Source of the DNA: Fibrobacteria bacterium
GTDB taxonomy: Bacteria > Fibrobacterota > Fibrobacteria > UBA11236 > JADFYW01
Length of the DNA: 64,000 nt
Direction of reading: 5' to 3'
Assembly: GCA_965261055.1 (NCBI GenBank)
Contig: OZ253440.1
Span: 625,564 to 689,563 of the forward strand
Positions 12,424-58,915 of the stretch are shown piece after piece. How positions within the stretch are numbered: position 1 is the stretch's first letter; every line of letters starts with the position of its first letter. The position numbers were made by a program, and so were the translations under genes. Below the pieces are notes generated by a model. It saw only the letters and a list, made by a program, of their open reading frames with translations, had not been told where the DNA came from and did not search any database.

Positions 12424-12445
12424 AATTTCCTTTTAAACAATTATT

Positions 12446-15825: not shown

Positions 15826-15903
15826 TTTTGTGGCTCACTTATGTAACACAAAATAGTTTGTGGCTCACTTATGTAACACAAAATAGTTTGTGGCTCACTT
15901 ATA
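15826..15903. repeat. Tandem direct repeat, ~30-bp unit x 2.6 (TTTGTGGCTCACTTATGTAACACAAAATAG), beginning at the fic stop codon and ending 6 nt before the hepT ATG
   Basis: Three head-to-tail copies are read directly (unit 1 has one extra T, and the third copy is truncated after ...CACTTATA). Each full unit contains the ATG-TAA start-stop pair. Confidence 0.9.
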
Positions 15904-15909
15904 GGAATT

Positions 15910-16326
15910 ATGAATGAAGAAAAATTAGATTTATCAGTTTTTGAAAAAGCAATAGTATCATTGAAAAGAGCATTAGATGAGTATCAAAAAGATGAACAGA
16001 ATGAGTTTATCCGTGATTCTTGTATTCAGCGGTTTGAATATTGTTATGAGTCCGCTAAAAAAATATTAATGAGACATTTTAAAAATACTGAAGATGATCC
16101 TACCAGCTTTGATGAGATGAAATTTGAGGAGATAATAAGATTAGGAGCTAAAAAAGCTTTGTTACGACATAGTTGGGATATATGGAATAATTATAGAGAA
16201 AACCGAAATAAAACTTTTCATAGCTATGATGAAACTATTGCCATAGAAATTGTGGAACAAATACCAAAATTTTATACCGAAGTAGACCATTTATTAGATA
16301 AACTCAAGGGATATTATGAAACTTGA
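15910..16326 (+). CDS. hepT: HepT-like HEPN-domain RNase toxin (type VII TA toxin family)
   Basis: 138 aa with the HEPN Rx4HxY motif (RNKTFHSY) near the C-terminus. Its stop overlaps the start of the downstream MNT ORF by 11 nt (ATGAAACTTGA). Confidence 0.85.
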   Translation: MNEEKLDLSVFEKAIVSLKRALDEYQKDEQNEFIRDSCIQRFEYCYESAKKILMRHFKNTEDDPTSFDEMKFEEIIRLGAKKALLRHSWDIWNNYRENRNKTFHSYDETIAIEIVEQIPKFYTEVDHLLDKLKGYYET

Positions 16327-17329: not shown

Positions 17330-17858
17330 ACATAAATTAAAGAGTACAGGAAAAGAAGAAGTTTATTCTGTTTCAGTACATAAAGGTTTAATTAATCAGA
17401 TAGAACATTTAGGCAGGAGCTTTTCTGCTAAAAATACTACCGATTATAGTCTTGTAAAGCCAAATGATATTGTTTATACTAAAAGTCCAACAGGTCAATT
17501 CGCTTATGGAATAATAAAACAAGCGAAAATTAATAAAGATGTAATAGTATCTCCTCTTTATGCTGTTTTTACTCCTGAATCAGAATATCTTGGATATATA
17601 TTTGACATATACTTTGAGTCAAAATATAATACTCATAATTATTTGCATTCTATTATTCAAAAGGGAGCAAAGAATACAATAAATATTACCAATACTACTT
17701 TTCTTTCAAAATCATTTAAACTTCCAATTGATTTCGCTGAACAAAAAAAGATAGCGAACTTCCTTTATTCTGTAGATGCCAAAATAGACTTGGTAAATAC
17801 CCAAAGAGAAAAAACAAAGGTTTTTAAAAAAGGACTTTTACAACAAATGTTTGTGTAA
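17268..17858 (+). CDS. hsdS: HsdS C-terminal half (TRD2 + C-terminal conserved region), in the +1 frame relative to the upstream part
   Basis: ...GGVLFEHKLKSTGKEEVYSV...(TRD2)...FAEQKKIANFLYSVDAKIDLV. The C-terminal conserved repeat duplicates the central one, as in canonical HsdS. The reading frame joins the upstream part if the G-tract is 8 rather than 9. Confidence 0.85.
   Translation: MRTTITIPIGTRKSWGGVLFEHKLKSTGKEEVYSVSVHKGLINQIEHLGRSFSAKNTTDYSLVKPNDIVYTKSPTGQFAYGIIKQAKINKDVIVSPLYAVFTPESEYLGYIFDIYFESKYNTHNYLHSIIQKGAKNTINITNTTFLSKSFKLPIDFAEQKKIANFLYSVDAKIDLVNTQREKTKVFKKGLLQQMFV
17311..17319 (+). repeat. Homopolymeric G9 tract inside hsdS at the TRD1/TRD2 boundary (candidate phase-variation switch)
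   Basis: Nine G are read directly at 17311-17319. The homologous site at the TRD1 start (16701-16708) is GGGGGAGG, an interrupted run. G8 would give KLGGVLFEH in frame with TRD2. Confidence 0.9.
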
Positions 17859-17868
17859 TTAATTATGA

Positions 17869-18924
17869 ATGCGGGAATTACGAATGATGAATGAAACAAA
17901 GAACAATAATTTTAATATACCAAGATGTGTAGATACTTTTAAAAAAGAAGCTGTAGACTTAGAAGCAGTGAGTAATGAGTTGACATTTATTGACCTATTT
18001 GCAGGAATAGGAGGTATAAAACTTGGTTTTGAAAATGCAGGTTTTCAATGTGTCTTTTCTAATGACTTTGATAAGAATTCAAAAATCACATTTGATATAA
18101 ATGTTGCTTTAGATAAGCAAATGATTCTTGGGGATATTCAAAAAATTTCTACAAACGAAATTCCTAATTTTGATATATTATGCGGAGGTTTTCCTTGTCA
18201 GCCATTTTCTGTTGCTGGCTATAGACAAGGATTTAATGATGAAAATGGCAGAGGAAATCTGTTTTTTGATATAGTAAGGATTTTGAAAAATAAAATGCCA
18301 AAAGCATTTTTATTAGAAAATGTAAAAAATCTAAAAACTCATGACAAAGGAAATACAATTAGCATCATTTACCATGAGCTACAAAAGCTAGGTTATAAAA
18401 TTACAAATAAAGTATTAAATACTATGGAATATGGTAATTTACCACAAAACAGAGAGAGAATTTATATTGTTGGTTTTTTAGAGAAAAAATCATTTAATAA
18501 TTTTGAATTTCCAAGCAAAATACCTCTGACAAAAACAATTCATGATTGCCTAGAGAATAAAGAAATTGATGATAAATATTATTACAATGATAAACCTATG
18601 TATGAAAAAATAAAAAATGATATTACTAAAAAAGATACGGTTTATCAATGGAGAAGACAGTATGTTAGAGAAAATAAAAATGGAGTTTGTCCTACATTGA
18701 CTGCAAATATGGGCACAGGAGGACATAATGTACCCTTGGTTCTGAATGGGAAAGGTATAAGAAAATTAACCCCTAGAGAATGTGCAAACTTTCAGGGCTT
18801 TCCCAAAAATTACAAATTTCCTTCTATTGCCGATTCACACCTATATAAACAATTTGGTAATTCTGTTTCTATTCCTGTAATTAATAGAATTGCTCAAAAT
18901 ATGAATTTAGCTTTAATGAAATAA
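17869..18924 (+). CDS. dcm: DNA (cytosine-5)-methyltransferase (Dcm-type, type II RM modification enzyme)
   Basis: 351 aa with motif I FAGIGG, motif IV GFPCQPFS, motif VI ENVKNL, and C-terminal QFGNSVSIPV (motif X). Confidence 0.9.
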   Translation: MRELRMMNETKNNNFNIPRCVDTFKKEAVDLEAVSNELTFIDLFAGIGGIKLGFENAGFQCVFSNDFDKNSKITFDINVALDKQMILGDIQKISTNEIPNFDILCGGFPCQPFSVAGYRQGFNDENGRGNLFFDIVRILKNKMPKAFLLENVKNLKTHDKGNTISIIYHELQKLGYKITNKVLNTMEYGNLPQNRERIYIVGFLEKKSFNNFEFPSKIPLTKTIHDCLENKEIDDKYYYNDKPMYEKIKNDITKKDTVYQWRRQYVRENKNGVCPTLTANMGTGGHNVPLVLNGKGIRKLTPRECANFQGFPKNYKFPSIADSHLYKQFGNSVSIPVINRIAQNMNLALMK

Positions 18925-18926
18925 TT

Positions 18927-20036
18927 GTGTTTTTTAATAATCAAATTGCTAAACAGAAGAAAAAATATCAATCTTTTTTAAAAATTGCTGGTTGTATATC
19001 TAATCTATTTTCTGATTCAAATATTCCCTATCTTTATTATAGAGTTGCAGAAAAAATATTTTGCCGTGCATTTGAAGCAGAAGATTTATCAAGAAGCGAT
19101 GTATCTGCTGATGCAAAGAAAAATGCTCTTGGAATAGGTTTAAAAACTTTCCTACAAGGTAATAATAAAAGTTTTCAAAAAATTGCAGAATTTAATAGCG
19201 ATAGATTATTATATGCGAATCTTGAATCAAAACAACTTGTTGCGAAAATATCAGAGTTGAGAAATAAGAGAATTGAATTTACTCGGAATACATACGAATT
19301 ACAAAATTCAATATACCATTGTATAATTAGAGATTTTGGGAAATTCAAAATCTTTGAAGAACCAATGGACAAAGTGGATATTCATAATATTCGTAATGTT
19401 AAATCCAATAAAAGTTCAATTACTTTTAATGATGAAAAAAATGAATATTCATTTTTACTTGCAAAAAGTACTCTTACAAAAAGATTTATTACGAAACCTA
19501 TTATTTATGAATTTGATGTTGAAATTCTTAAAGATCCATTACTTGAACTCAAAAATATTTTATATCAAAAAGATTTACTACTAGAAACAGAAAATAGAAT
19601 AAAGCAAACTATTTATTTACCTTTGTATGGTAGAGGTTCAACTGTATTTGAGAAAAGTGGACTAAATCAATGGAATGCAGGAGGAAGAGTAAGAGATCCA
19701 AATGAAGTTTATATTCCTATTCCAGCTGAAATTTATAAAAACTTTAAAGATTTTTTTCCCAATAGAGACACTCCATTTAATTTAAAACTTCCAAATGGAA
19801 AAATTATGCAATCTAAAATATGTCAAGATGGAGGTAAAGCTTTAATGTCTTATTCTAACAGAGAGCTTGGGCATTGGATTTTAAGAAGTATTTTAAAATT
19901 AAAAGAAGGAGAATTATTGACCTACGAAAAATTACAAGAAATAGGCATTGATTCAGTGAGTATTAATAAAATCAATAATTTAGAATTTGAGATAAATTTT
20001 ACAAAAATTGGTAGTTATGAAAAATTTATTAAATAA
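18927..20036 (+). CDS. Hypothetical protein; candidate cognate type II restriction endonuclease for the adjacent C5-MTase
   Basis: 369 aa, starting at GTG 2 nt after the dcm stop and co-directional. There is a possible PD-(D/E)xK-like segment EAEDLSRSDVSADAKK. No family is recognised with confidence. The position is classic for an R gene following M. Confidence 0.45.
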   Translation: MFFNNQIAKQKKKYQSFLKIAGCISNLFSDSNIPYLYYRVAEKIFCRAFEAEDLSRSDVSADAKKNALGIGLKTFLQGNNKSFQKIAEFNSDRLLYANLESKQLVAKISELRNKRIEFTRNTYELQNSIYHCIIRDFGKFKIFEEPMDKVDIHNIRNVKSNKSSITFNDEKNEYSFLLAKSTLTKRFITKPIIYEFDVEILKDPLLELKNILYQKDLLLETENRIKQTIYLPLYGRGSTVFEKSGLNQWNAGGRVRDPNEVYIPIPAEIYKNFKDFFPNRDTPFNLKLPNGKIMQSKICQDGGKALMSYSNRELGHWILRSILKLKEGELLTYEKLQEIGIDSVSINKINNLEFEINFTKIGSYEKFIK

Positions 20037-20133
20037 AATCAAAGTTTAATTGAAGACATTGAAGAATTGTTAAAATTAATAGGTAGTATTCAAAAAACAA
20101 TTCGTAATTCATAATTAACAATTCGTAATTAAA

Positions 20134-22980
20134 ATGACAACACAATCTGAACAAGCATTAGAAAATAATTTAATAGAGCAATTGCTTAAATTTGATAAAT
20201 ACAGTCGTATTAAAATCAAAGGCAAAGCTGACCTACGCGCAAATCTTAAAACACAATTAGAAAAACATAATCATGTTACTTTGTCTGATAAAGAATTTCA
20301 AAAAATTCTTCCTATCCTTAATACAGGAACCGTATTTGAAAGAGCCAAAATATTAAGAGGAATAAGACACCATATTATAAAGGATGATGGAAAGACATTT
20401 TATTTTGAATTCATCAATCAAACAGAATGGTGTAAAAATGAGTTTCAAGTTACCAATCAAGTAACTATAGAGGGTGAATATGAAAATCGTTATGATGTTA
20501 CCATTCTGATTAATGGCTTGCCATTAGTTCAAATAGAGCTTAAACGAAGAGGGTGTGAGATGGGAGAAGCACACAGGCAGATATTACGCTATAAAGATCA
20601 TTCCTTTGCTAGTGGGTCGGCTTTGTTTGAATATGTGCAGTTATTTATCATTAGCAATGGAGTAAATACCAAATATCTTGCTAATAATCGTAAAAGAGAT
20701 TTAAATTTTAAGCAAACCTTTTATTGGGCAGATGAGCAGAATAATAAAATAACCCATTTATCAGAATTTGCTAATGTATTTTTAGAGCCTTGTCATCTAT
20801 CCAAGATGATATGCAAATACATTGTACTTGCCAAAACAGATAAACTATTAATGGTATTGAGACCGTATCAATACTATGCTTGTGAAAAGCTCATAGATAG
20901 AGTTAAAAACACCGATAAGAACGGCTATATATGGCATACCACAGGTAGTGGTAAAACACTCACTTCTTTTAAGGCAAGTCAAATACTCATGCACATGCCC
21001 GAAGTACATAAAGTGGTGTTTGTAGTAGATAGAAGAGACTTGGATTATCAGACGACCAAAGAGTTCAATAATTTTTCTGAAGGTAGTGTAGATGGCACAG
21101 ACAACACCAAAGCTTTAGTAAAACAATTTGGTGATGATACTAAATTATTAGTTACTACTATTCAGAAATTAAATAATGCCATCGGCAGTCAGCGATATAC
21201 TTCTACAATGGAAACATTAAAAGATAAACGAATTGTTTTCATATTTGATGAATGCCACCGTTCCCAATTTGGGGAAACACATCAGCGTATCGTTAAATAC
21301 TTTAATAATCATCAAATGTTTGGTTTTACAGGAACACCAATATTTGCTGATAATGCTGTTAAGAATCAATTAGGTGAAAGAACAACAAAAGAGCTTTTTG
21401 GAGATTGCTTACATAAGTATGTTATCACAGATGCTATTCGTGATGAGAATGTGTTGAGTTTTTCTATTGAGTATGTAGGTAAATATACAGAAAAGAATAC
21501 AAGAAACTATATAGATATAGAAGTAGAAGCAATAGATGAGAGAGAGCTTTTTGATAATGAGGAACGCTTGAATAAAATCACAGATTATATCATTCACAAT
21601 CATGCAACTAAAACACATAGCAAACAATTCACAGCAATGTTTGCAGTTAGTGGCATTGCCACACTAATTAAGTATTATGAGCTTTTTAAAGCTAAAGAAA
21701 AAGAACACAAGTTAAAAGTTGCTACCATTTTTTCTTATTCTGCCAATGAAGAGAATGATGCTGTTGATGGTATCACATTTTTTAATGAAGAGGGTGCTAT
21801 TGAAGATACTCCAAACTCCAAACACAGTAGAGAAAAATTAGATGAGTTTATCGCTGATTACAATAAGATGTTTGGCACTAAGTTTTCTACAAAAGATAGT
21901 CAGTCCTATTACGACTATTATAATGAGATAGCTAAGCGTGTAAAGAATCGTGAAATTGATATTTTGATAGTAGTTAATATGTTTCTTACAGGTTTTGATA
22001 GTAAGCCATTAAACACGCTATATGTAGATAGAAATTTAAAACATCACGGATTAATACAAGCTTTTTCAAGAACTAACAGGATATTAAATAAGAACAAGTC
22101 TCACGGTAATATTGTATCGTTTAGAAACCTTAAGAAAGCGACAGATGAAGCGATTGCCTTATTTTCAAATAAAGATGCTAAAGAGACAATATTACTTAAA
22201 CCATATCAAAATTATTTAAGTGATTTTAATGAGGCTGTAGAGGAGTTAAAACAAATTGCTCCGACTGTAGATAGTGTCAATAATTTATTAACTGAAAGTG
22301 ACGAATTAAAGTTCGTTGAAGCATTTAGAAACTTAATGAGAATACAAAACAAACTTAGTTGTTTTGCTGATTTTTCATTTAAAGATTTACAGATGTCTGA
22401 ACAAGAATTTAAGGATTACAAGAGTAAATACTTAGATATATATGACAAAGTAAATCGCAATAATGATAAAGAAAAAGTATCTGTTTTAGACGATGTGGAT
22501 TTTGAATTAGAGCTTGTACATAAAGATGTTATTAATGTCGATTATATCATTCAGTTACTTTCTCAATTAGTTGAAGCTAAAGACAAAAACTATGAAAATC
22601 AAAAAAAACAAATCTTAGATACACTTTCAGGAGATCTTAATTTAAGAAGCAGAAAAGCATTAATTGAGCAATTTATAGAAGAAAATCTTGTAGGTATTGA
22701 AAATTCTCAAAATGTAGCCGATGAGTTTAAATCATATTGGGATAAGCAGAAAGAAAAAGCATTTAATGATTTATGTGATGAAGAGAGTTTAGATACAAGC
22801 CAAATAAAAGATATAGTAGAAGAATATTTATTTGCTAATCAAGTGCCTGATATGAGAGATAAAATAATGAAGTCTATGTTAAAAAAGGAGACGCTTTTAA
22901 TGCGTCAAAAAACTATCCCAAGAGTAAAAGATAAGATTATGAATTTTGTGAATACCTTTATTGAAGGTATGCCCGCTTGA
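20134..22980 (+). CDS. hsdR: Type I restriction enzyme endonuclease/translocase subunit R
   Basis: 948 aa with SF2 helicase motifs HTTGSGKTLTS (motif I) and DECHRSQ (motif II). It has HsdR N- and C-terminal domains and is the last gene of the co-directional RM array. Confidence 0.95.
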   Translation: MTTQSEQALENNLIEQLLKFDKYSRIKIKGKADLRANLKTQLEKHNHVTLSDKEFQKILPILNTGTVFERAKILRGIRHHIIKDDGKTFYFEFINQTEWCKNEFQVTNQVTIEGEYENRYDVTILINGLPLVQIELKRRGCEMGEAHRQILRYKDHSFASGSALFEYVQLFIISNGVNTKYLANNRKRDLNFKQTFYWADEQNNKITHLSEFANVFLEPCHLSKMICKYIVLAKTDKLLMVLRPYQYYACEKLIDRVKNTDKNGYIWHTTGSGKTLTSFKASQILMHMPEVHKVVFVVDRRDLDYQTTKEFNNFSEGSVDGTDNTKALVKQFGDDTKLLVTTIQKLNNAIGSQRYTSTMETLKDKRIVFIFDECHRSQFGETHQRIVKYFNNHQMFGFTGTPIFADNAVKNQLGERTTKELFGDCLHKYVITDAIRDENVLSFSIEYVGKYTEKNTRNYIDIEVEAIDERELFDNEERLNKITDYIIHNHATKTHSKQFTAMFAVSGIATLIKYYELFKAKEKEHKLKVATIFSYSANEENDAVDGITFFNEEGAIEDTPNSKHSREKLDEFIADYNKMFGTKFSTKDSQSYYDYYNEIAKRVKNREIDILIVVNMFLTGFDSKPLNTLYVDRNLKHHGLIQAFSRTNRILNKNKSHGNIVSFRNLKKATDEAIALFSNKDAKETILLKPYQNYLSDFNEAVEELKQIAPTVDSVNNLLTESDELKFVEAFRNLMRIQNKLSCFADFSFKDLQMSEQEFKDYKSKYLDIYDKVNRNNDKEKVSVLDDVDFELELVHKDVINVDYIIQLLSQLVEAKDKNYENQKKQILDTLSGDLNLRSRKALIEQFIEENLVGIENSQNVADEFKSYWDKQKEKAFNDLCDEESLDTSQIKDIVEEYLFANQVPDMRDKIMKSMLKKETLLMRQKTIPRVKDKIMNFVNTFIEGMPA

Positions 22981-23057
22981 TTTTTAGCAGTTTCATAAAC
23001 ACAATTTGACCTATTACGAAATCTTCCAACCGAGATGAGCAGACATAAAAAAAGCCA

Positions 23058-23092
23058 AGAAGTGAATCTTGGCTGATAAATTACTGACAATC
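23058..23092 (-). terminator. Rho-independent terminator (AGCCAAGA-TTCACTT-CTTGGCT followed by a T-run on the minus strand)
   Basis: Inverted repeat gccaaga/tcttggc with a T7 run after it on the minus strand. It is the second of two hairpins downstream of tRNA-Leu and between the convergent hsdR and tRNA genes. Confidence 0.45.
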
Positions 23093-23169
23093 TTACTGTA
23101 TTACCTTATAATCTAGCAACATTTAGACTCATTCTATATCTCCATTTTTAAGTGTTTTAATAAACAGGC

Positions 23170-23200
23170 ATAAAAAAAGCCTCTTACAAAATGTAAGAGG
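23170..23200 (-). terminator. Rho-independent terminator immediately 3' of tRNA-Leu (GCCTCTTAC-loop-GTAAGAGGC followed by a T-run on the minus strand)
   Basis: A 9-bp perfect stem gcctcttac/gtaagaggc, followed by TTTTTTTA on the minus strand. Confidence 0.55.
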
Positions 23201-23205
23201 CAAAT

Positions 23206-23290
23206 TGCGGACGGGCGGACTTGAACCGCCATGAGAAAATTTCTCACTAGCCCCTCAAGCTAACGTGTCTACCAATTTCACCACGACCGC
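23206..23290 (-). tRNA. tRNA-Leu (anticodon GAG), long variable arm, no encoded CCA
   Basis: The reverse complement is GCGGTCGTGGTGAAATTGGTAGACACGTTAGCTTGAGGGGCTAGTGAGAAATTTTCTCATGGCGGTTCAAGTCCGCCCGTCCGCA. It has a 3-bp D-stem, an anticodon loop TTGAGGG (anticodon GAG), a variable-arm hairpin GAGAAA/TTTCTC, and a T-arm GGCGG-TTCAAGT-CCGCC. There is one U5-U68 mismatch in the acceptor stem. Confidence 0.85.
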
Positions 23291-23311
23291 AAAAGTTGTT
23301 ATAAAAATCAA

Positions 23312-28142: not shown

Positions 28143-28823
28143 ATGATTATTCGTTTTAATCATGTTTATAAAAGTTATAAGAATACTAACTTTGCTTTGA
28201 ATAATATTCACCTTGAAATAAACAAAGGGGATTTTGTCTTCTTATTAGGAAAAAGTGGAGCTGGCAAAACAACCTTTCTAAAACACCTCTACATGGAAAA
28301 TGTTCCTGATCGCGGTGAAGTTGTCATAAGCCTTAGCAAAAATGTTGTTTACAACTCAAACAAAATAAAGTTCAAACAAATCCAACTTTTACGTCAAAAA
28401 ATAGGGATTATTTTTCAAGACTTCAAACTTTTTAACGATAGAAATGTCTTTGAAAACATTGCTTTTCCTCTTAAACTTCAATGGGGTGATCAAACAAAAA
28501 TCAAAAACCGTGTTTACGAGGTTTTATCTGAATATGGTTTATCACATAAAGCAAATCAATTCCCATATGAGCTCTCTGGAGGAGAACAACAGCGTATCGC
28601 TATCGCCAGAGCGATTGTAAATTACCCCTATCTCATTATTGCTGATGAACCCACTGGTAATCTTGACATGGCTAATTCTATAGAAGTTTTGAATATTTTT
28701 AAAAAAACTCATGCCAAAGGAACAACAATCGTCATGGCAACCCACGAACGACAACTCATCAAAAGCCTACCCTATCATGTCGTTGAGATTGATAAAGGCA
28801 AAGTTTTACACCAAAATTTCTAA
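28143..28823 (+). CDS. ftsE: ABC transporter ATP-binding protein, FtsE-like (cell-division ABC ATPase family); no adjacent permease gene
   Basis: 226 aa with Walker A GKSGAGKTT, an ABC signature LSGGEQQRIAIARA, and a Walker B IIADEPT. Its size and sequence are FtsE/LolD-like. The absence of ftsX downstream makes the assignment tentative. Confidence 0.65.
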   Translation: MIIRFNHVYKSYKNTNFALNNIHLEINKGDFVFLLGKSGAGKTTFLKHLYMENVPDRGEVVISLSKNVVYNSNKIKFKQIQLLRQKIGIIFQDFKLFNDRNVFENIAFPLKLQWGDQTKIKNRVYEVLSEYGLSHKANQFPYELSGGEQQRIAIARAIVNYPYLIIADEPTGNLDMANSIEVLNIFKKTHAKGTTIVMATHERQLIKSLPYHVVEIDKGKVLHQNF

Positions 28824-30994
28824 TGCAAAATCAAAGTGCTTTTCTTTCTAAGTTAAACCCTGTTCAACGACAAGCTTGTAAATCCATCAACGGACCTCAA
28901 CTTTTATTAGCTGGAGCCGGGAGCGGAAAAACAAGAGTCTTAACTTTTAAAATTGCTCACTTAATTGAGCACCATAATGTTGATTCTTCTCAAATTTTAG
29001 GTGTTACTTTTACAAATAAAGCAGCAAAAGAAATGAAGGAAAGAATCCATCAACTTTTGCCATCCTCTCACCCTTTACCCTGGATAGGAACTTTCCATTC
29101 AATCTGTCTAAAAATTTTAAAACGATATTCTCACCATATTGGCTTCACAAACCAATTTACAATCTACGATACCAGTGAACAAAAGAAGGTCATTAAACAA
29201 ATTTTAAAAGAACAAAATGAACCTCTAGGAATCAATACACCATCCCATATCAAAGAAGTTATTTCATACTATAAGAACAAAAATTTAACTCCTGAACAAG
29301 CTCAAAAACGCAAAGAAAATCAAGATGAGAAACATTTAAGAGAAATTTTCATTTATGACTGTTATCAAAAATTACTTCTTAAACAAAATTCAATGGATTT
29401 TGACGATTTAATTTTTAATACTGAAACATTATTAAAAAAAATTCCAGAAATACAAGAAGTTTACCAAAAATATTTCCAATATATTTTTATTGATGAATTT
29501 CAAGATACCAATAAATCTCAGTTTGATTTAATCTGTTTACTTTTAAACAAAAAAAAAAATATCACGGTAGTTGGAGATGAGGATCAAAGTATTTACAAAT
29601 GGAGGGGAGCAGATATTCAAAATATTTTATCTTTTCAAAAATACTTTCCTAATTCTAAAACAATCAAACTAGAACAAAATTACCGTAGTTCTAGTAACAT
29701 TCTAAATTTAGCGAATTCAGTCATTAAAAATAATACGGAACGATTAGGTAAAAAAAATTGGACAAACAATTCTGCTGGAGATTTAGTAGAATTAAAAGTC
29801 TGTCAAGATGAAACAGAAGAGGCTAACTGGGTCGCAAAGAAAATTTTGTCTTGCCAAGATTTTAAATCCATAGCTATTTTATACCGTACGAACGCTCAAT
29901 CTAGAACCCTTGAAGAACAACTCATCAAAAACAGGATTCCTTATGTTATTTTAAAAGGAACTAGATTCTACGAACGCAAAGAAATTAAAGACATACTCGC
30001 CTACCTTCAAATTTTAATCAACCCACAAGACGATAATAGCCTTAAAAGAATTATTAATACACCCAAAAGAACGATTGGTTTAAAAACAATAGAAGACCTA
30101 ACTTTAATAAGCCAACAGCAATCTATCTCACTCTACGAATGTTTACAGAGAATCAATGAATGGAGTTTTGGTAAAGCTACCCACAAAATTAATTCCTTTG
30201 TAAAGATGATTGAGTTTTTTAAACAAAAAGAGAAAGAAACTTCATTATCACAACTCATTGAACTTGTTATTACTCAATCTGGGTATGAAGAAATGCTCCA
30301 ACTATCCAAAGAACATGATATGTTAAGTCAATTAGACAATGTAAAAGAACTCGTCGCTTCTGCCGAAGATTTTTGTAACCAAATAGAAAATCCAACCTTA
30401 TCTTTATATCTGCAAGAACTATCCCTATTTTCTGATAATGATACTATATCAACTCAAGAAACCGTCTCTTTAATGACAGTTCATAGCTCCAAAGGTCTTG
30501 AATTTAATTTTGTATTCTTAACTGGGCTAGAAGAAGAATTATTTCCTCTAAGTTCAGATGAAATTGAAGAAGAACGACGCCTCTTTTATGTTGCGACAAC
30601 GCGTGCCGAAAAAAAGTTGTGTCTGACTTCCACACAATCTCGTAGAGTATGGGGTAACACCCAGTTTAAAAGACTCTCTAGGTTTATCAAAGAAATTGAT
30701 ACCCAATACCTAGAATATTCAGACCCTATAGAGTCTAAAAAAAATCAAGAATTCTTTTCTTTTTCTGGTTTAGAATACGATGAATCCTCTTATTTTCAAG
30801 ATCAAACATACGATGAATTTGAAACACAAGCTCCCTCATTTAAAAAGGGACAAAAAGTGTATCACCAACACTTTGGCAATGGTAAAATTACCCGTGTTGA
30901 CGGCACTGGAGAAATGGCAAAAGTTAGTGTTGATTTCCAAGGAACAACCAAAAGACTCGTTGTAAAATTTTCTAATTTATCTTTAGTTTATTAA
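28823..30994 (+). CDS. uvrD: ATP-dependent DNA helicase UvrD/PcrA family with a C-terminal extension
   Basis: 723 aa with Walker A AGAGSGKTRVL, a UvrD helicase N domain, and conserved C-domain motifs (TVHSSKGLEF, VATTRA). Its last ~150 codons are duplicated, in decayed form, at 33205-33660. Confidence 0.9.
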   Translation: MQNQSAFLSKLNPVQRQACKSINGPQLLLAGAGSGKTRVLTFKIAHLIEHHNVDSSQILGVTFTNKAAKEMKERIHQLLPSSHPLPWIGTFHSICLKILKRYSHHIGFTNQFTIYDTSEQKKVIKQILKEQNEPLGINTPSHIKEVISYYKNKNLTPEQAQKRKENQDEKHLREIFIYDCYQKLLLKQNSMDFDDLIFNTETLLKKIPEIQEVYQKYFQYIFIDEFQDTNKSQFDLICLLLNKKKNITVVGDEDQSIYKWRGADIQNILSFQKYFPNSKTIKLEQNYRSSSNILNLANSVIKNNTERLGKKNWTNNSAGDLVELKVCQDETEEANWVAKKILSCQDFKSIAILYRTNAQSRTLEEQLIKNRIPYVILKGTRFYERKEIKDILAYLQILINPQDDNSLKRIINTPKRTIGLKTIEDLTLISQQQSISLYECLQRINEWSFGKATHKINSFVKMIEFFKQKEKETSLSQLIELVITQSGYEEMLQLSKEHDMLSQLDNVKELVASAEDFCNQIENPTLSLYLQELSLFSDNDTISTQETVSLMTVHSSKGLEFNFVFLTGLEEELFPLSSDEIEEERRLFYVATTRAEKKLCLTSTQSRRVWGNTQFKRLSRFIKEIDTQYLEYSDPIESKKNQEFFSFSGLEYDESSYFQDQTYDEFETQAPSFKKGQKVYHQHFGNGKITRVDGTGEMAKVSVDFQGTTKRLVVKFSNLSLVY

Positions 30995-31088
30995 TTGTTT
31001 TACAAACAAAACGAATCAAATATAAGTTATTAAATTATTTGGGGTTTTTAAATTCTTAAATTGGGCAAATTAGAAGGCTAAAATATTA

Positions 31089-31960
31089 ATGAGTGAAAAG
31101 AAAGACTTTACATTTATAGACCTATTTTCAGGAATTGGTGGATTTTATATTGCCCTACATAATTTAGGAGGAAAGTGTGTCTTTGCATCCGAAATGGACA
31201 CACACGCAAGAAAAACATACGAGCACAATTTTAAAAAATTATCTCCAGAATTATTTAAAAATAACATGTTCAATGACGACATACTAAATGTAACTTCTTC
31301 CGATATTCCAGATTTTGATATTTTATGTGCAGGATTTCCTTGTCAAACTTTTAGCCAAGCAGATTTTAAAAGAGGATTTAATGACAATCATAATTCCGAA
31401 AGAGGTAATTTATTTTACAATATTGTAGATATTTTAGAAGAGAAAAAACCAAAAGCATTTTTTATTTAAAATGTAAGAGGCTTAATTAAACACAACAATG
31501 AAAATATATGTAAGTTAATTAGAAATATTTTGAAAAATGACTTAGAATATTCATTCTATTTCAAAATAGTAAAAGCATCTGATTATGGTTTACCACAATT
31601 AAGACCAAGAGTATTTATGATTGGTTTTAGAGATGAAGGGTTTATGAAAGGTTTTACTTTTCCTAAAAAGAAATCTCTAAAATATAATATGAGTGGTGTT
31701 TGGGATGGACAATGCAGTAGAGAAATTGGATATACTTTAAGAGTTGGAGGTAGGGGCTCAAAGATAGATGACAGAAGAAATTGGGATGCTTATTTGGTAA
31801 ATGGTAAAGTTAAACAATTAGGTCTCAAACAAAGAAAAAGAATGCAAGCCTGATAACTATGAGTTTCTAGTCAGTTAATACACAAGTAATAAAACAACTT
31901 GGAAATAGTATAGCAATAGATGCCATACAAGAAGTCACAAAACAAATGATAAATCACTTA
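31089..31960 (+). pseudogene. DNA (cytosine-5)-methyltransferase pseudogene (premature TAA in motif VI plus frame disruptions)
   Basis: Motif I FSGIGGF and motif IV GFPCQTFS are intact. The ORF ends ...KPKAFFI* where LENV is expected, and the next codons read NVRGL, so GAA became TAA in ENV. A downstream piece (31530..31853) carries motif VIII-like QLRPRVFMIGF. Motif X QLGNSIAIDAIQEV appears in a third frame near 31885-31930. Confidence 0.8.
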
Positions 31961-32990
31961 AAATCGATAAACACCTTGTCTTCAGATATGAAAAAAACCA
32001 AAAATAAAGAAGAATGGACTGAACTTTTAATATTTATAAAATTATTAACTGAACAAAAACTACAATTATCTGACAAAGACTTAAATCCTAAAAACAATTT
32101 TTTAACATTCAAAAAGTTACAACTCATAATTTAGATTTGGAATTTTTCATAATTGATAAAACTACTATTCAATTAAAAAATAAGACATCTAACGAATTAA
32201 AAAACATCCAAATATCAGATCTTTTAAATCAACAAGTTCTTAACGAGACTACAAATGCTATTATTGAAGGTAAAAAAAATTTACCATCCCCACTTTCGAT
32301 ATTGTACAAAAACATTTAGAATTTTCAACAGTAAAAGGTGGGACAAGTTCTCAAAAAGCTGATATAATCTTAGATATTCAAAATATAGAAATTGACACAA
32401 AAATGAGAGGTTTGGAATTAAATCGTATTTAGGAAGTAAACCCACTTTATTAAATGCTTCTGGAAATACTAATTTTATTTTTGAGGTTAGTGGCATTGAG
32501 TGTAAATATCTAGATAAAATCAACGGAATTGACACAAAAACTAAACTAAAAGATAGAATACAGTTTATAGAAGAATTAGGCGGGATATTAAAGTACATTG
32601 GTGCTTAAAAAGAAACAATAAATTATAATCTAAAAATGACCGATAGTTTAATGCCAAATATTATTAGAGAACTGCTTCTAAGTTTTTATAAAAAAGAATT
32701 TCTAAACTCATAAAAATAGTTAATAACATTGATGCTGTAGGTACATTGAATTCTCAAATTAATTACGGAAATAAAAAAGTTTAGAAATAAAAATTAAAAA
32801 ATTGTTAGTCAATATTCTTTTAGGTTTTTTAGCTGGCACAAAATGGAATGGAGATTACGAATCTAATGGAACAATCATAATGAAAAAATCAAGAGATATT
32901 CTTGGGTTTCATATTATTGATTTTAAAAATCTAAAAGACTATTTATTTGAAAACATTAAATTAGACACTCCTTCTTCTACTTGAGTTTGG
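31946..32990 (+). pseudogene. Putative type II restriction endonuclease remnants (fragmented across all three frames), partner of the decayed C5-MTase
   Basis: Consecutive short ORFs and inter-ORF translations (e.g. FSTVKGGTSSQKADIILDIQNIEIDTKMRGLELNRI*, SKPTLLNASGNTNFIFEVSGIECKYLDKINGIDTKTKL...) read as one protein interrupted by stops and frameshifts. The total span of ~1 kb is appropriate for a REase. The family is not securely identified. Confidence 0.3.
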
Positions 32991-33204
32991 AAAAAACTAT
33001 AAAGAGAAAATAGGAAATTGTATTTTAAATTAAATTTACAACTAAGATTCTAATACCAGTGACTAAGTATATAAAAATAGCGGAATGAAATAAGCACTAA
33101 AACAAATTAAGAATAATTTAAGCATGAAGCAAGTAGAATTTTACTACAACCCGAATTTACATACCACCAAATACGGGAAGCCAGAGAAAGTTTTAAAAAG
33201 GTTT

Positions 33205-33660
33205 AACATTTGAACAGATAAAATTGAAAAGAACGACTCCTCTTTTATGTTGCAACAACACATGCCTAAAAAGTTGTGTCTAACTTCCGCACAATCTCAT
33301 AGAGTATGAGGTAACCCAGTTAAAAGAGTCTCTAGATTTATCAAAGAAATTGACACCCAATAACCTGGATATTTAGACTCTATAGAATCTGAAAAAAGTC
33401 AAGAATCCTTTTCTTTTTTTGATTCAAAATACGATGAATTCTCTTATTTTCAAGATCAAACATACGATGAATTTAAAACACAAACTCCCTCATTTAAAAA
33501 GGGACAAAAAGTGCATCACTAACACTTTGACAATAGTAAAATTACCCGTGTTGACGGCACTGAAGAAATGACAACGATTAGTACAATTTCCAAGGAACAA
33601 CTAAAAGACTCGTTGTAAAATTTTCTAATTTATCTTTAATTTATTAGATACTTCTCATAC
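33205..33660 (+). pseudogene. Decayed duplicate of the uvrD 3' end (~455 bp, roughly 85-90% identical to 30553-31010, with stops and indels)
   Basis: Direct alignment by eye of 33233-33655 with 30567-30994 (e.g. CTCTTTTATGTTGC(A/G)ACAAC, GTTGTGTCT(A/G)ACTTCC, ACCCGTGTTGACGGCACTG(A/G)AGAAATG, TCGTTGTAAAATTTTCTAATTTATCTTTA). The translation contains several stops (HRV*GN, KVHH*HF). Confidence 0.85.
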
Positions 33661-33849
33661 ACTCAAGATTTTATTACACTCTGTGTTCACAACAGTTTTT
33701 ATCCAAGCTTTAAAGTCAATAATTGTTCAGATAAATCATAAGCTTTCAGCTTTGCAGTTAATTGCGATTTTTTATTTTTAATTCGTAATTTCATTTCTAA
33801 ATTTGAAATACTATCCTTTAATTTGATATTTGATAAAAGAGCTTCATAA

Positions 33850-34646
33850 ACTGTATTCCTATTAATTTCTTTTCACCTATATGATAAAAATGTTCTTTTG
33901 TCTCAACGTAATAATCTTTCCAAATTGGGAATACATAATCATTAGTCCGATATTTATTACTTAGCCAAATTGACAGAATAAATTTACAATTTGAATTTAC
34001 TAGATCTTGGTTTAAAACAATTTCCTCTTCTTCTGACCAACTATCAAAATAATCTACATACCTACAATGTATGGAGGATCTGAATAAACTAAATCCGAAT
34101 TATTTAATTCAGATAATGTTTCATTAAAGTTTTGGTGTTTAAATTCACAATCGTCTTGCTCAATAATTTTAGAAATATTTTTCACTTGATTGAATATTTT
34201 AGTAACCAATACTTGAGTAAAAAATTTAGTTTTTGCAAAAGGAACATTGTAACCTCCTTTTTATTAAACTGCATCATACCGTTAAAGCAAGAACGACTTA
34301 GAAATAAAAAGTCCAAAGTATTCTCTGTATCATTAAATCTATTTCTTATAGTATAATAGTATTCGCCTTCTGTCTCTAGTAATTATTCTCCTTCTTCATT
34401 TAGAAATTGTCTAACTTGACTACTTGAAATTTCTTTATTTTGTAATACTTTATAAAAATTTATCAGATGAGGATTACTATCACAAAGAAGAACTTTTTTA
34501 GGCAGTACATTAAATGCAACTACACCAGTCCCCATAAAAGGCTCAACCCAAAGGTCAAATTCAATTTCTTTTACATTTAAAGAAATCCATTTTACAAGTT
34601 TGGTTTTAATACCTTGGGATTTTATTGATGGAACAAAAATTTTCAT
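33850..34646 (-). pseudogene. Dam-like (D12 class) N6-adenine DNA methyltransferase, fragmented
   Basis: The N-terminal fragment 34383..34646 (87 aa) has motif [14 protein letters not shown] (Dam: EPFxGxGxV). A catalytic motif IV DPPY is found on the same strand ~450 bp downstream (SDPPYIV, around 34066-34083) but out of frame with the N-terminal piece. Stops and frameshifts lie between them. Confidence 0.55.
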
Positions 34647-34854
34647 TTCTTATTTTTTATTTTGACTTAACTGGATTAATTTTATCTAACTCCTATCCCT
34701 TTGAATTCAAGAAATTCAGTCAGTTTTGTTAATTTTTTAAGATGACCTGTTTGCTTTGAATTGGGAAGCTTTAAAACACCTTGATTAATCCAATATTCAT
34801 CAAATATTTTTTCTCCAAAATTTTTGAATACTCCATCTCCTTTTAGAATATCTT

Positions 34855-35130
34855 CTATGTATTGGATCTTTCTATGTTTGCAGTATTGCCACTACCTCCT
34901 TTATCACTTGATATTTTCCATTTTTCTTCTGTAAAGAAAACTAAGTCTTTTATTACTGAAGTAATTTTATCTAATTCATTTAATTCTAATTTTTTAGTTT
35001 CATCTATTTTAACTGATAATCTCCTTGAATATAAAATTCCCAAACAGATGCGAAAAGTATACTCAACATAAGGGAATTGAATATTTTTAGCACTTATTTT
35101 AATTCTAAAATACTCCCCTATATAAACCAA
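34855..35130 (-). CDS. Hypothetical protein (91 aa), no recognisable domain
   Basis: The only support is the ORF, inside the decayed accessory region. It may itself be a gene fragment. Confidence 0.2.
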   Translation of the reverse strand: MVYIGEYFRIKISAKNIQFPYVEYTFRICLGILYSRRLSVKIDETKKLELNELDKITSVIKDLVFFTEEKWKISSDKGGSGNTANIERSNT

Positions 35131-35590
35131 GGGTTAAACCATTACAAAATCCATCGTAGTCATCTAAACGATATATTGTTTATCTCTACTGCAAATTTTA
35201 CTTTAGGATTTTTCTTATTTACAAAAGATAAATCTAGATATCAATTTTGCATTTTAGCAAAAATAATTTCGTATCAATTTTGATCTGCAAATTCCTAAAA
35301 TTTCGGAAAAAGTTGTATCTCCAATATTTTTGATATTATTTTAGTATTAGAAGATATAGTATAAATACTTTTTTCAACATCAATAAACCCTTTAACTTTC
35401 TAATCTCCAATTTTATCAGAAACATATTCTGTTAATTCCTTGGAAAATTCTATTAATTTCTTTAAAAACTCTTTTTTATACACTCATTTGCACACTATAA
35501 CGGAATTATTCTTAAGTTATAAATTATTCATTCTCATAGTTACCATTTTAAAGCTACTAACTGAAATATAAATACCAACATTTGTTTATA

Positions 35591-36190
35591 CTAAGCTTTA
35601 ATAAACAATAGTTTAGATAATACAGAAAAATGTTTTTGAGCTAATTCAAAAAGACCAAACATTAAACCAGAAAAGACTAAATTACCTAATAAAATTCCTT
35701 TTAGAAATGGTAAAGCTAAAACATAACATTTTACAAAGCCTGCAATGTCTTTTGTAAACGATAGCCCTGTAGTAAAATCTAAGCCACCAAACCATACACC
35801 GAAATCAGAAATAACCCAATGCACTAAAGACGCTCCTAAAGCAGAAATGAAAATACTTTTAAACGATACTTTTTTTATAAAAGAACCGATAACAACAGCA
35901 AAAGCAAAAGCAACATAAGTCCAAATCCAACCTTGATAAAGGAGACCTGTACTATACTTTGGGAAAAAAGCATGCATAATCACTAAATCGCTGATAAATA
36001 AAGCCATTAATGGGAATATAAAAGATTTTAGTTTACTAGAAAAATAACATCCTCCAAAAAGAGCCATAGCACCAATCGGTGTAAAGTTTTCTATAGGTAA
36101 ACTTATTTGAGAAACAAACAATCTCCAACAAGCAACAAAAAAAATAAAGGCAATAAGAACTAAAGTACGAAGATGGAGTGTTTTTTTCAT
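35591..36190 (-). CDS. Polytopic integral membrane protein (5-6 TM), function unknown (possibly a small-solute/ECF-S-component-like transporter)
   Basis: 199 aa, strongly hydrophobic with multiple predicted TM helices and no soluble domain. Confidence 0.45.
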   Translation of the reverse strand: MKKTLHLRTLVLIAFIFFVACWRLFVSQISLPIENFTPIGAMALFGGCYFSSKLKSFIFPLMALFISDLVIMHAFFPKYSTGLLYQGWIWTYVAFAFAVVIGSFIKKVSFKSIFISALGASLVHWVISDFGVWFGGLDFTTGLSFTKDIAGFVKCYVLALPFLKGILLGNLVFSGLMFGLFELAQKHFSVLSKLLFIKA

Positions 36191-36420: not shown

Positions 36421-39400
36421 ATGCCTAAACGACAAGACCTTAAAAGTATTATGATTATTGGAAGCGGACCTATTGTTATCGGTCAAGCTTGTGAATTTGA
36501 CTATTCTGGAACTCAAGCTTGTAAAGTACTCAAGGAAGAGGGTTATCGTATCATTTTAGTAAACTCTAATCCAGCAACTATTATGACAGATCCAGAAACA
36601 GCTGATGCATGTTATATAGAAGCTCTAACACAAGATGTGTGTGCAAAAATTATTGAAAAAGAAAAACCAGATGCATTACTTCCAACCCTAGGGGGACAAA
36701 CTGGTTTAAACATTGCTATCGAGCTTTCTGAACATGGTGTTTTAAAGAAATTCAATGTTGAACTTTTGGGAGCAAATCTCAAAACAATACAAAAAGCTGA
36801 ATCACGCGATTTATTTCGCAATGCCATGAACAAAATTGGATTAAAATCAGCTCCTTCATATATTGCTCGTACAATGGAAGAAGCGATTGCTAGTAAAGAA
36901 AAATTAGACTTACCAGTCATCATCCGTCCTGCATTCACTATGGGTGGTATCGGAAGCGGTTTAGCCTTTAACGACAAGCAATTTGAAACGATTGTAAAAA
37001 GCGGTTTGCAACATAGCCCTGTCAACGAAATTTTGATTGAAACCTCTATCTTAGGTTGGAAAGAATACGAAATGGAAGTCATTCGTGACCGTAAAGATAA
37101 TGTTGTCATTGTTTGTTCTATTGAAAATTTAGATGCTTTAGGCATTCATACTGGAGATTCTATTACTGTGGCTCCATCTCAAACTCTCACAGATAAAGAA
37201 TATCAATACATGAGAAATGCTTCCATCGCTGTTGTTAGAGAAATTGGTGTTGAAACTGGTGGTGCAAATGTTCAATTTGCTGTCAATCCAAAAAATGGAG
37301 AGCTCGTTATTATTGAAATGAACCCTAGAGTCTCTCGCTCCTCCGCCCTAGCCTCTAAAGCAACAGGCTTCCCAATTGCTAAAATTGCAGCTCAACTTTC
37401 TGTTGGTTATACTTTAGATGAACTTCTAAACGATATTACCAAAGAAACTTCAGCTTGCTTTGAACCCTCTATTGACTATGTTGTAACTAAAATCCCTCGT
37501 TTTACCTTTGAAAAATTCCCTCAGTCCTCTTCTGTTTTAGGTTCTCAGATGAAATCTGTAGGTGAAGCAATGGCAATCGGTAGAACCTTTAAAGAATCTC
37601 TGCAAAAAGCAATGCGTTCTTTAGAAATAGGCTACCCTGGTTTAAGTACCGAATATAATCCTATTACTGATGAAAATCTTTTGACGAATTTAAATTATAA
37701 AGCTCCAGGTATTAACCGACTAATTTCAGCAAAACGAGCTTTAGAATTGGGTTGGAGTCTTAACAAAGTTTTCGAAATATCAAAAATTGACCTTTGGGTT
37801 TTAAATCATATCTTAGAACTTGTTCAATTTGAAAATCAGAATCTAGTCAATAAAAATCTTTCTCAAATTTCAAAAGAAACTTTACTCGAAAGTAAACAAA
37901 AAGGTTACAGTGATAAGCAACTTTCAGATATTCTAAACTGTAAAGAAGACGCTGTATATAAAACGAGAAAAGAATTTAATATTATATCTTCTTTTAAAAC
38001 AGTTGATACTTGTGCTGGTGAATTTCAAGCTTATACACCCTACCATTATTCATCTTACGATGGGCAAAATGAATCTGTCCGATCTTCTAAACCTAAAGTC
38101 ATTATCATTGGGAGTGGTCCTAACCGTATTGGACAAGGAATAGAATTTGATTATTGTTGTGTACATGCTTCGTATGCTCTACAAGAAGAAAACTACGAAT
38201 CAATTATCGTTAATTCTAATCCAGAAACAGTTAGTACTGATTACGATACTTCTGACAAACTCTATTTTGAGCCACTTAACTTTGAAGAAATTATAAGAAT
38301 TGTAGAACAAGAGAAACCAGATGGTGTTATCGTTCAATTTGGTGGACAAACTCCACTTAAACTCGCTCAAATTCTTAAAAACAATGGTGTTCCTATCATT
38401 GGCACAAGTCCAGAGTCTATTGAATTGACTGAAAACCGCAAGCTTTTTTCAAAACTTGCGAACGAAATCGGTTTAAAACAACCTGAACATGGTCTTGCAA
38501 CAAACATTGAAGAAGCTTTAGAAGTGACTCAAAATATAGGATTTCCTATACTGCTTCGACCATCTTTCGTCTTGGGAGGACGTGCAATGATGATTTTACA
38601 CAACTCTAGAGACCTAAAACACTATATGTTGTCAGCTGTTCAAGCTTCTGAAAAACGTCCTGTTTTAATTGACAAATTTCTTAACGGAGCTACTGAAATA
38701 GATGTAGATGCTATCAGTGATGGAAAAAAAGTTGTTATTGCTGGCATTATGCAACACATTGAAGAAGCTGGTATCCATTCGGGAGATTCTGCATGTGTTA
38801 TTCCTCCTTATCAAATTAAAGAATCCATGATTGCACTCATTAAAGATTCTACCACAAAACTTGCTAAGAAGCTCCATGTAATTGGTCTGATGAATGTCCA
38901 GTATGCAATTTTAAAAAATGACCTCTATATCATTGAAGCAAATCCTAGAGCTAGTCGCACAATTCCTTTTGTTAGTAAAGCCATTGGCGTTCCATTAGCT
39001 AAACTTGCGACAAAGGTAATGTTAGGTAAAACTTTAGAGCAATTAAACTTTACCAAAAGCATTACAACCTCTTACAGTTGTGTTAAAGAATCCGTTTTTC
39101 CTTTCATTAAATTTCATAATGTAGATACCTTACTTTCTCCAGAAATGAAATCTACAGGTGAAGTTATGGGCATCGATCACAATTGGGAAATAGCTTTTGC
39201 AAAATCTCAAATTGCTTCTGGAAATAATTTACAAACCTCTGGTAAAATCTTCTTATCCGTTAATGATTTTGACAAAGAGCAACTCATTCCAATTGCAAGT
39301 AACTTACATAAAATGGATTTTTTACTCTATGCTACATCAGGTACTGCTGAAATGCTTAAAAAACACGATATCAATTGTAAATCTATTAATAAAATTCACG

Positions 39401-39645
39401 AAGGATCTCCACATATTGCTGACATCATTGAAACAGAAGATATAAGCTTACTTATTAATTCTCCTTTAAATCAAGCCAGTAATATAGACGATAGTATTAT
39501 CCGTAAAAAGGCTATCCTTAAACAAATACCTTATACAACAACGATTGCAGCAGCAAAAGCGGTTGTAAAAGCTCTTGAACAAATGCAAAATAAAGACCTA
39601 ACTGTTCAATCTCTACAAGAATACCACCGTATCATTCATACTTAA
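36421..39645 (+). CDS. carB: Carbamoyl-phosphate synthase large subunit
   Basis: 1074 aa with two ATP-grasp modules and an MGS-like C-terminal domain. The N-terminal [24 protein letters not shown] matches the CarB hallmark. Confidence 0.95.
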
Positions 39646-56816: not shown

Positions 56817-56892
56817 ATTTTTGATTAGGCTTTCTTAATTCATTAATTTAAAAATCAAAAACAAGTTTAATACTTAATCATATAGGAGTAAA

Positions 56893-58892: not shown

Positions 58893-58915
58893 TTGACCCT
58901 ACTCTCCGATTCTTT

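Follow-up and report, generated by a model that had tools for sequence, protein, structure and literature searches.

The window analysed here, a 64-kb stretch of the 1.6-Mb contig OZ253440.1, carries behind an intact uvrD/pcrA helicase gene an island of dead restriction-modification (RM) genes, within which the 3′ end of uvrD recurs as a decaying direct repeat. Read from left to right, the region consists of uvrD ending in a 439-bp repeated gene end, a methylase–endonuclease pair of the HpaII type, the second copy of that gene end, a methylase–endonuclease pair of the EcoRV type in reversed orientation, a DUF6580 gene and carB. The structure is a clean, old and fully decayed example, in a new lineage, of a known RM-linked insertion, the “insertion with long target duplication”, which was originally described by Nobusato et al. 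(2000, Gene 259:99) and for which operational criteria were set out by Furuta, Abe & Kobayashi (2010, NAR 38:2428; PMC2853133). Probably, although by no means certainly, the HpaII-type unit was inserted behind uvrD by a single recombination event, with 439 bp of target sequence being duplicated in the process.

The uvrD/pcrA gene (28823..30994, plus strand) forms the left flank of the island and is the target of the duplication; its 723-aa product shows full-length Pfam matches to UvrD-helicase, UvrD_C and PcrA_UvrD_tudor, the C-terminal Tudor domain included, and its orthologues in the two nearest relatives are 64% (L081) and 53% (L082) identical. Copy 1 of the repeat is the functional last 146 codons of the gene (30555..30993, plus strand), while copy 2 is a decaying relic of the same 3′ end with two stops and seven indels (33215..33646, plus strand), both being delimited by alignment and blastn. 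In their local alignment of 440 columns, 390 are matches and 9 are gap columns, the latter belonging to 7 indels; identity is 90.5% when gap columns are left aside (blastn E 2e-156), and a repeat search recovers the match as four in-register blocks. The copies, 439 and 432 bp long, lie in direct orientation 2.66 kb apart, and exactly two copies occur within the window by blastn. The left edge of homology is sharp at 30555/33215, shortly ahead of helicase motif VI (EEERRLFYVATTRA), and the right edge is the uvrD stop codon, TAA in copy 1 and TAG in copy 2. The direct repeat exists far beyond chance, and an assembly artefact is ruled out as its source because the copies differ at 41 positions and by 7 indels. 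The duplicate of the uvrD terminus noticed in the initial annotation is real, but its solid left edge is at 30555/33215 rather than at 30553/33205; the approximately 15 bp of shared 3′ flank claimed with it does not hold, since homology stops at the stop codon and the next 15 nt match at 8 of 15 aligned positions, which is not significant.

The two in-frame stops, the seven indels and a neutral substitution pattern bear out the earlier view that the displaced copy is decaying. Copy 2 contains the stops W610* and Q682* together with frameshifts, and the motif VI arginines have been lost (R586L, R594H). Substitutions between the copies are spread evenly over the codon positions (15:15:11); the 37 codons that differ comprise 7 synonymous and 30 nonsynonymous cases, where neutrality predicts a synonymous share of 21%, so that omega is about 1. 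Transitions outnumber transversions by 36 to 5, and from copy 1 to copy 2 there are 27 changes of G/C to A/T vs 11 in the opposite direction. When uvrD of the two nearest relatives serves as outgroup to polarise the differences, the outgroup state at 20 informative sites is kept by copy 1 in 16 and by copy 2 in 4. Decay of copy 2 amounts to about 0.07 substitutions per site, and this alone predicts about 12.7 synonymous differences vs the 7 observed; there is no excess. It can be seen from the above that copy 2 is uvrD sequence decaying neutrally and drifting to A+T, and not an imported functional orthologue; with omega near 1 and only 7 synonymous differences where decay predicts about 13, there is no sign of earlier divergence, and the copies were near-identical at the time of the event.

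The relic also gives the mutation spectrum of the lineage directly, as a datable neutral marker. Per site, G/C to A/T changes in it are about 4.5 times as frequent as the reverse, which implies a mutational equilibrium near 18% G+C, below the 31% of the window. Meanwhile, six of the seven indels pair up as frame-restoring combinations (−1/−2, −2/−1, +1/−1), followed by a single −1; a paired pattern of this kind has a chance of about 1 in 27, and the pairs could be an alignment artefact, multi-nucleotide events or the trace of brief selection on frame.

A second uvrD-like segment is, by itself, what would be expected if the 3′ end of the second member of an ancient tandem helicase pair had survived, and nothing further speaks for such an origin, which is hardly credible. 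No second uvrD-like segment was found in five relatives (L081, L082, L146, L147 and L148; 46–64% UvrD identity), each of which has a single uvrD; the left edge of homology at 30555/33215 is abrupt, what precedes the relic being an RM pseudogene instead of helicase sequence; and copies that still share 90% of their nucleotides, with neutral divergence, are far too young to stem from an ancient paralogue.

The 2,221 bp between the repeats (30994–33214), which with one repeat make up a unit of 2.66 kb, were searched as stop-to-stop fragments in all six frames against Pfam, as was the rest of the island. Behind the uvrD stop codon, a spacer of 94 bp without a family match (30995..31088), at which the homology to copy 2 ends, leads to the start of a C5-cytosine DNA methylase pseudogene (31089..31987, plus strand; PF00145, TIGR00675). 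PF00145 positions 1–108 and 110–182 are found on two fragments in the same frame, and the lesions are an in-frame stop at 31467–31469 and a frameshift near 31830–31870, ahead of motif X; the reconstructed methylase matches TIGR00675 dcm with E 2e-59 and is collinear with the homologue P0122. It is followed by an HpaII-family restriction endonuclease pseudogene (31988..33053, plus strand; PF09561), whose successive fragments cover PF09561 positions 1–36, 95–135, 137–207, 212–241 and 267–334 of 359, and whose lesions number at least 5 frameshifts and 3 in-frame stops. Over 99% of its length, the reconstructed protein shares 66% identity with an intact 369-aa homologue (P0121), the last residue of which (369) is reached at 33050 by tblastn. 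The remaining spacer of 161 bp (33054..33214), delimited by alignment and family scan, contains no family match to a Vsr-like or other gene, and its right end at 33214/33215 is the abrupt joint to the uvrD relic, presumably an illegitimate one.

An HpaII-family endonuclease with an adjoining C5 methylase is the gene pairing of an HpaII-type Type IIP RM system, and the pair is inactivated, the genes being neither intact nor expressible. The C5-methylase pseudogene reported earlier between the copies is thereby confirmed, and the accompanying “REase remnants” are indeed endonuclease fragments, now refined to the HpaII family by the collinear match to PF09561 1–334 of 359. A recent duplication of the live C5 methylase at 17.9 kb was considered as the source of the dead one and rejected at 40–45% protein identity. 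In addition, methylase motif X and the N-terminus of the endonuclease share one stop-free frame (31871–32131). The closest HpaII-family homologues are methylase–endonuclease fusions, and intact members often consist of a single open reading frame (ORF) in which a complete or partial C5-methylase domain is fused to the endonuclease (P0122, P0126, P0188; L144, L145); in Bernardetia (L145), a 540-aa fusion of this kind stands alone between rny and rpe. Judged from these homologues, the ancestral HpaII-type unit may have been a single-chain methylase–endonuclease fusion.

To the right of the relic, a spacer of 174 bp (33647..33820; fragment and family scan) extends from the relic stop codon to the end of a convergent pseudogene of a Dam-family N6-adenine methylase (33821..34649, minus strand; D12 class, M.EcoRV-like; PF02086, TIGR00571). 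PF02086 positions 2–74, 83–129 and 128–186 are recognised, with 1 in-frame stop and at least 2 frameshifts as lesions; the reconstructed protein matches TIGR00571 dam with E 6e-50 (profile 2–240 of 267) and the DpnM and Dam structures in PDB with E 6e-14. Next to it lies an EcoRV-family restriction endonuclease pseudogene (34685..35483, minus strand), matched in four pieces by PF09233 (positions 10–43, 63–84, 103–185 and 187–244 of 244) and by EcoRV in PDB (E 4e-10); it carries at least 5 lesions, and the position of the catalytic D-I-K reads E-I-N. An EcoRV-family endonuclease with an adjoining Dam/D12-class methylase is the gene pairing of an EcoRV-type Type IIP RM system, and here the pair is complete in extent but dead, its genes being neither intact nor expressible. 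For this right-hand 1.9 kb, the earlier description of a fragmented Dam-like methylase stands, whereas the supposed “ORFans” beside it are fragments of the EcoRV-family endonuclease (PF09233 10–244 of 244; PDB EcoRV E 4e-10).

HpaII recognises CCGG and EcoRV recognises GATATC, both belonging to Type IIP RM systems. The window pairs resemble these systems in that the endonuclease families RE_HpaII and Endonuc-EcoRV are accompanied by the expected C5 and Dam/D12 methylases, and differ from them in that both pairs are inactivated, the specificities being those suggested by family membership only; furthermore, the EcoRV genes are divergent in E. coli, whereas the endonuclease and methylase genes of the window pair are co-oriented.

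The four pseudogenes are collinear along the region and leave over spacers of 94, 161, 174 and 107 bp, and the G+C content is 0.26 in both RM units vs 0.31 for the window. To the right follow the intact DUF6580 gene (35591..36190, minus strand; PF20221, E 1e-48) and the intact carB (36421..39645, plus strand; Pfam CPSase domains). The family scan gave no match to integrase or transposase families on any island fragment or flanking gene; the flanks (surA, ftsE, uvrD, DUF6580, carB, a TPR protein and an aldo-keto reductase) contain no mobility gene, and the nearest five genes on either side all have housekeeping roles. With the interval taken up by collinear pseudogenes, no space remains for a recombinase remnant. 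Two statements of the initial annotation, that the interval is filled with dead RM genes and that integrase and transposase are absent, are therefore upheld by four Pfam-identified pseudogenes, all with stops or frameshifts, and by unassigned DNA that consists of four short spacers. For annotation, this means that 31.0–35.6 kb holds four nameable pseudogenes and a uvrD fragment, not orphan genes. A scan of the junctions for terminators and promoters gave counts at background and was not used. Apart from uvrD, the region is probably non-functional today.

This gene content also bears on an alternative put forward in the initial annotation, in which an integrative element supplied a replacement gene end: the element would have brought its own uvrD 3′ end and integrated in uvrD, the native end would have been displaced to become copy 2, and the integrase would later have been deleted. 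The intact end at the left junction and the displaced end at the right of the cargo are indeed the topology of 3′-end integration, as in elements that use gene ends or tRNA genes. Unlike such elements, the island has no recombinase: no integrase, excisionase or transposase match was found in any frame, and only 255 bp are unassigned between the repeats. Moreover, a 439-bp “att” far exceeds the cores of site-specific systems, and a foreign end should differ mostly at synonymous sites, whereas 7 of the 37 differing codons are synonymous with omega about 1, a neutral and not a synonymous-biased divergence. With neither room for an integrase nor a synonymous excess, this origin is disfavoured and must be regarded as very improbable.

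Insertion with long target duplication accounts for the same features without such an element. The operational criteria call for both the restriction and the modification gene within the insert, here the HpaII-family endonuclease and the C5 methylase; for an insert below 20 kb, here 2,221 bp; for a direct repeat longer than 30 bp, here 439/432 bp; and for no other mobile element, the unassigned DNA within the unit being 94 + 161 bp. They further ask for a low-copy repeat, of which the 64-kb window has exactly two copies, and, as the decisive point, for a comparison genome with one repeat copy and no insert; no such genome was found in the collections searched, and the right-hand flank differs in all five relatives examined. 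It has been reported that Type IIP units of H. pylori are flanked by direct repeats of 397–423 bp (PMC2853133), and the window unit resembles them as a complete Type II endonuclease–methylase pair of about 2.2 kb within target-derived direct repeats of about 440 bp, without a mobile element; its repeat, like those of the H. influenzae cases, overlaps a housekeeping gene at the 3′ end. The Helicobacter-type interpretation offered earlier agrees with this in gene content, insert size, repeat and lack of mobility genes, but not in the claim that the repeat bounds the whole 5-kb region, as it brackets the HpaII-type unit only. Unlike the published cases, whose repeats are 94–100% identical (PMC2853133), the repeats here are 90% identical, both RM genes are dead and the right edge is a stop codon; the lower identity indicates that the event is much older than the published ones. 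The host, near Fibrobacterota in the Fibrobacteres–Chlorobi–Bacteroidetes (FCB) group, falls outside the phyla that the survey lists. The phenomenon has been documented mainly in Helicobacter, Haemophilus, Neisseria and a few others.

As a fixed mechanism, the literature offers no more than double-strand breaks and a cycle in which the unit is inserted, amplified and released (PMC2853133). In the window, the HpaII-type unit would have been inserted at the end of uvrD with 439 bp of the target duplicated in a single recombination event; one copy would have remained joined to the body of uvrD, keeping the gene whole, and the other, severed from its 5′ part, would have come to lie between the newcomer and an older neighbour, the EcoRV-type unit. 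A dedicated recombinase would not be needed. The most likely route would be homologous recombination anchored in the uvrD 3′ end: a fragment consisting of a uvrD 3′ end and the RM unit, derived from a near-identical cell that had this RM in the slot after uvrD, would have been integrated either circularised, in Campbell style, or linear, and the event would have been completed by one illegitimate joint at 33214/33215. Since then, the relic has decayed neutrally toward A+T, and both RM pairs have been inactivated by stops and frameshifts. A homology-anchored route would explain the edge at the stop codon, the near-identity of the copies at origin and the intact uvrD; homology would end exactly at the stop codon because the slot behind it is variable and the two alleles diverged from that point on.

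The same final structure would also arise if the order of arrival were reversed. The genome would then have possessed uvrD and the HpaII-type unit, and a near-identical donor would have brought a “uvrD 3′ end + EcoRV-type unit + right flank” fragment, joined homologously on the right (DUF6580/carB side) and illegitimately on the left at 33214/33215; the relic would be a hitch-hiking donor fragment, and two alleles of one slot would have become stacked in tandem. In this arrangement each RM unit has its own junction from uvrD stop codon to RM, the near-identity of the copies at origin is what a conspecific donor requires, and both units are alike in decay and in G+C (0.26). Nothing discriminates this order from the arrival of the HpaII-type unit as the insert, but it requires a right flank common to donor and recipient, and the published definition makes the repeat-bracketed unit, of the HpaII type, the insert; it is accordingly the less favoured order, a possibility to be held tentatively.

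Comparison with relatives places the island on a variable junction. GroEL of the window is closest to metagenome-assembled genomes of Fibrobacterota (74–76%), followed by Cytophagales (about 70%), and on these comparisons the host appears to be a poorly sampled FCB-group bacterium near Fibrobacterota. No UvrD closer than 64% identity was found in the species-genome, protein and metagenome collections searched, the species-genome scan with UvrD giving 44% as the best among the matches listed and the metagenome scan with the UvrD C-terminus giving about 53% at best, over a conserved stretch; exact look-ups of the window UvrD and of the protein P0001 gave no record, nor was an empty or single-copy uvrD site found in these collections. 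The upstream synteny gap-pgk-tpi-secG / surA-ftsE-uvrD is conserved in relatives. The 3′ side of uvrD holds an ORF without known function, a radical-SAM gene and murB in the 64% relative (L081), and a sub-threshold IS1595-like ORF and ksgA in the 53% relative (L082); the right-hand neighbours of uvrD thus all differ among the three closest genomes, the window included. In the relatives at 46–51% UvrD identity (L146, L147, L148), the order is uvrD-gatC-kdsB-pyrG-comEA-pilM, with gatC starting 43–108 bp past uvrD, which shows that uvrD ancestrally adjoined gatC (gatC-kdsB-pyrG) and not carB. Adjacency of uvrD and carB occurs in 0 of the 5 relatives examined, and no relics of gatC, kdsB or pyrG were detected after either uvrD copy or in the window. 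Gene order in these genomes identifies the uvrD 3′ flank as a synteny breakpoint in the clade and the uvrD/carB adjacency as derived. The comparison of uvrD-to-carB intervals as an empty-site test is not applicable, because the two genes are adjacent in no relative. In L082, a 208-aa ORF at 12232–12858, directly 3′ of uvrD, matches the ISXO2/IS1595-type transposase at 20.4 bits vs a cut-off of 27, a hint of a landing or breakage site at the uvrD 3′ flank in the clade.

Because the three closest genomes each continue differently after this breakpoint, the question arises whether the duplication is a by-product of rearrangement, produced by breakage and repair at the uvrD end when the uvrD-gatC synteny broke; the RM genes, not mobile themselves, would have gathered at a junction that was permissive and non-essential, or would have been the cause of the breaks. 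In “Candidatus Endomicrobium trichonymphae” Rs-D17, whose small genome is without transposons or prophage, mostly pseudogenised Type II RM pairs coincide with synteny breaks, and one duplication of a flanking region rescued a gene (Zheng et al. 2015, MBE 33:721; PMC4760077). The window shares with Rs-D17 a small genome and dead Type II RM pairs at synteny breaks between housekeeping genes; it differs in phylum and in that, outside the RM units, its genes are intact and densely packed, not subject to general erosion. The repeat brackets exactly one complete methylase–endonuclease pair with less than 260 bp of other DNA, where random rearrangement predicts otherwise, and the copies lie in direct orientation at a distance of just 2.66 kb, so that a by-product of rearrangement is an unlikely origin.

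Several points weigh against the insertion of the HpaII-type unit with duplication of its target. As no empty or single-copy genome was found, the polarity of the insertion and the order in which the units arrived are inferred. The island sits on a synteny breakpoint, where a more complex rearrangement could yield a duplication, and the published phenomenon has no established mechanism, the homology-anchored route being one of several with the same end product. Neither CCGG nor GATATC occurs near 30555, 30994, 33215 or 33646, so there is no recognition site at any junction. Lesion density was tried as a clock, by which the relic would be older than the death of the RM genes, and was rejected: the difference is not significant in a like-for-like count (p = 0.14), and p = 0.0006 is obtained only when lesions are counted by nucleotide in the relic and by reading frame in the genes. 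Finally, CCGG is depleted in the window (5 observed vs 28.9 ± 4.8 expected in dinucleotide-preserving shuffles), which is consistent with past HpaII-type activity but not specific to it, as GCGC, ACGT and GGCC are depleted as well. Maximal-order Markov ratios of observed to expected counts in the window are 0.08 for GCGC, 0.19 for CCGG, 0.32 for ACGT, 0.46 for GGCC and 0.48 for TCGA, those of non-palindromic G/C-only 4-mers are 0.9–1.4, and GATATC is not depleted in the window; this avoidance of 4-bp palindromes is the classical (fossil) signature of a genome that several Type II systems have acted on for a long time.

A second relic gene end was found elsewhere in the window. The 3′ region of hsdM at 14550–14648 recurs at 17898–17993 over about 100 nt with about 77–79% identity and one 3-nt gap (blastn E 4e-12; local score 43 vs 13.3 ± 1.8 in shuffles). 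The segment derived from hsdM forms an in-frame N-terminal extension of about 40 aa on the intact C5 methylase 3.3 kb downstream of hsdM, and the topology is the same as at uvrD: gene end, cargo, relic gene end and next RM unit. The hsdM relic is older than the uvrD relic. A recurrent, lineage-wide process that leaves relic gene ends before RM units is a possibility raised by this second case, not an established one.

This relic belongs to an apparently intact composite Type I/Type II defence island at 13153–23291, adjoining tRNA-Leu (23205–23291, minus strand), in which a Type II pair and a toxin–antitoxin-like pair are nested in a Type I operon. It comprises hsdM (13153–14721), a Fic/DOC protein gene (14722–15825), a gene for a HEPN-like NTase_sub_bind protein (15910–16326), one ORF in which a Pol-beta-type nucleotidyltransferase is fused to an HsdS target-recognition domain (16316–17329), a second half-HsdS ORF (17268–17858), the intact C5 methylase (17869–18924), an NgoFVII-like endonuclease (18927–20036) and hsdR (20134–22980). 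Between the fic and HEPN-like genes, 15827–15886 is a perfect tandem repeat of a partly palindromic 30-nt unit (TTTGTGGCTCACTTATGTAACACAAAATAG twice), which could serve as an operator or have arisen by recent slippage. The 64% relative has secG followed by psd, without the composite island. In other parts of the window, 58893–60964 is a 2-kb interval after groEL without an ORF of at least 120 aa and with short fragments, e.g., a TPR-like piece at 59051–59260 (minus strand), and may be another decayed gene; by comparison, 12136–12823 holds two small intact SpoVG-like ORFs and 56878–57177 is groES, and such intact small ORFs indicate that decay is not general.

The uvrD island extends a known phenomenon to a deep, poorly sampled FCB-group lineage, and recombinase-free RM insertion with target duplication of hundreds of base pairs may be general rather than limited to a few competent pathogens. 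Both RM pairs have died after arrival and the junction lies at a synteny break, which is relevant to the disputed part that RM systems play in genome rearrangement. It may be conjectured, with considerable reserve, that RM cassettes in this lineage spread and stack without mobile-element machinery, using the conserved 3′ end of the upstream housekeeping gene as a portable homology arm, with fragments of gene end and RM unit being taken up and then recombined through that homology. If so, every such insertion would leave behind a relic gene end and eventually disrupt synteny. The two relics in 64 kb, the uvrD end ahead of the EcoRV-type unit and the hsdM end ahead of the live C5 methylase, and the differing neighbours of uvrD in the three closest genomes would then mark genome-wide rearrangement driven by RM systems, similar to what has been proposed for Endomicrobium except that here the direct-repeat scars survive.

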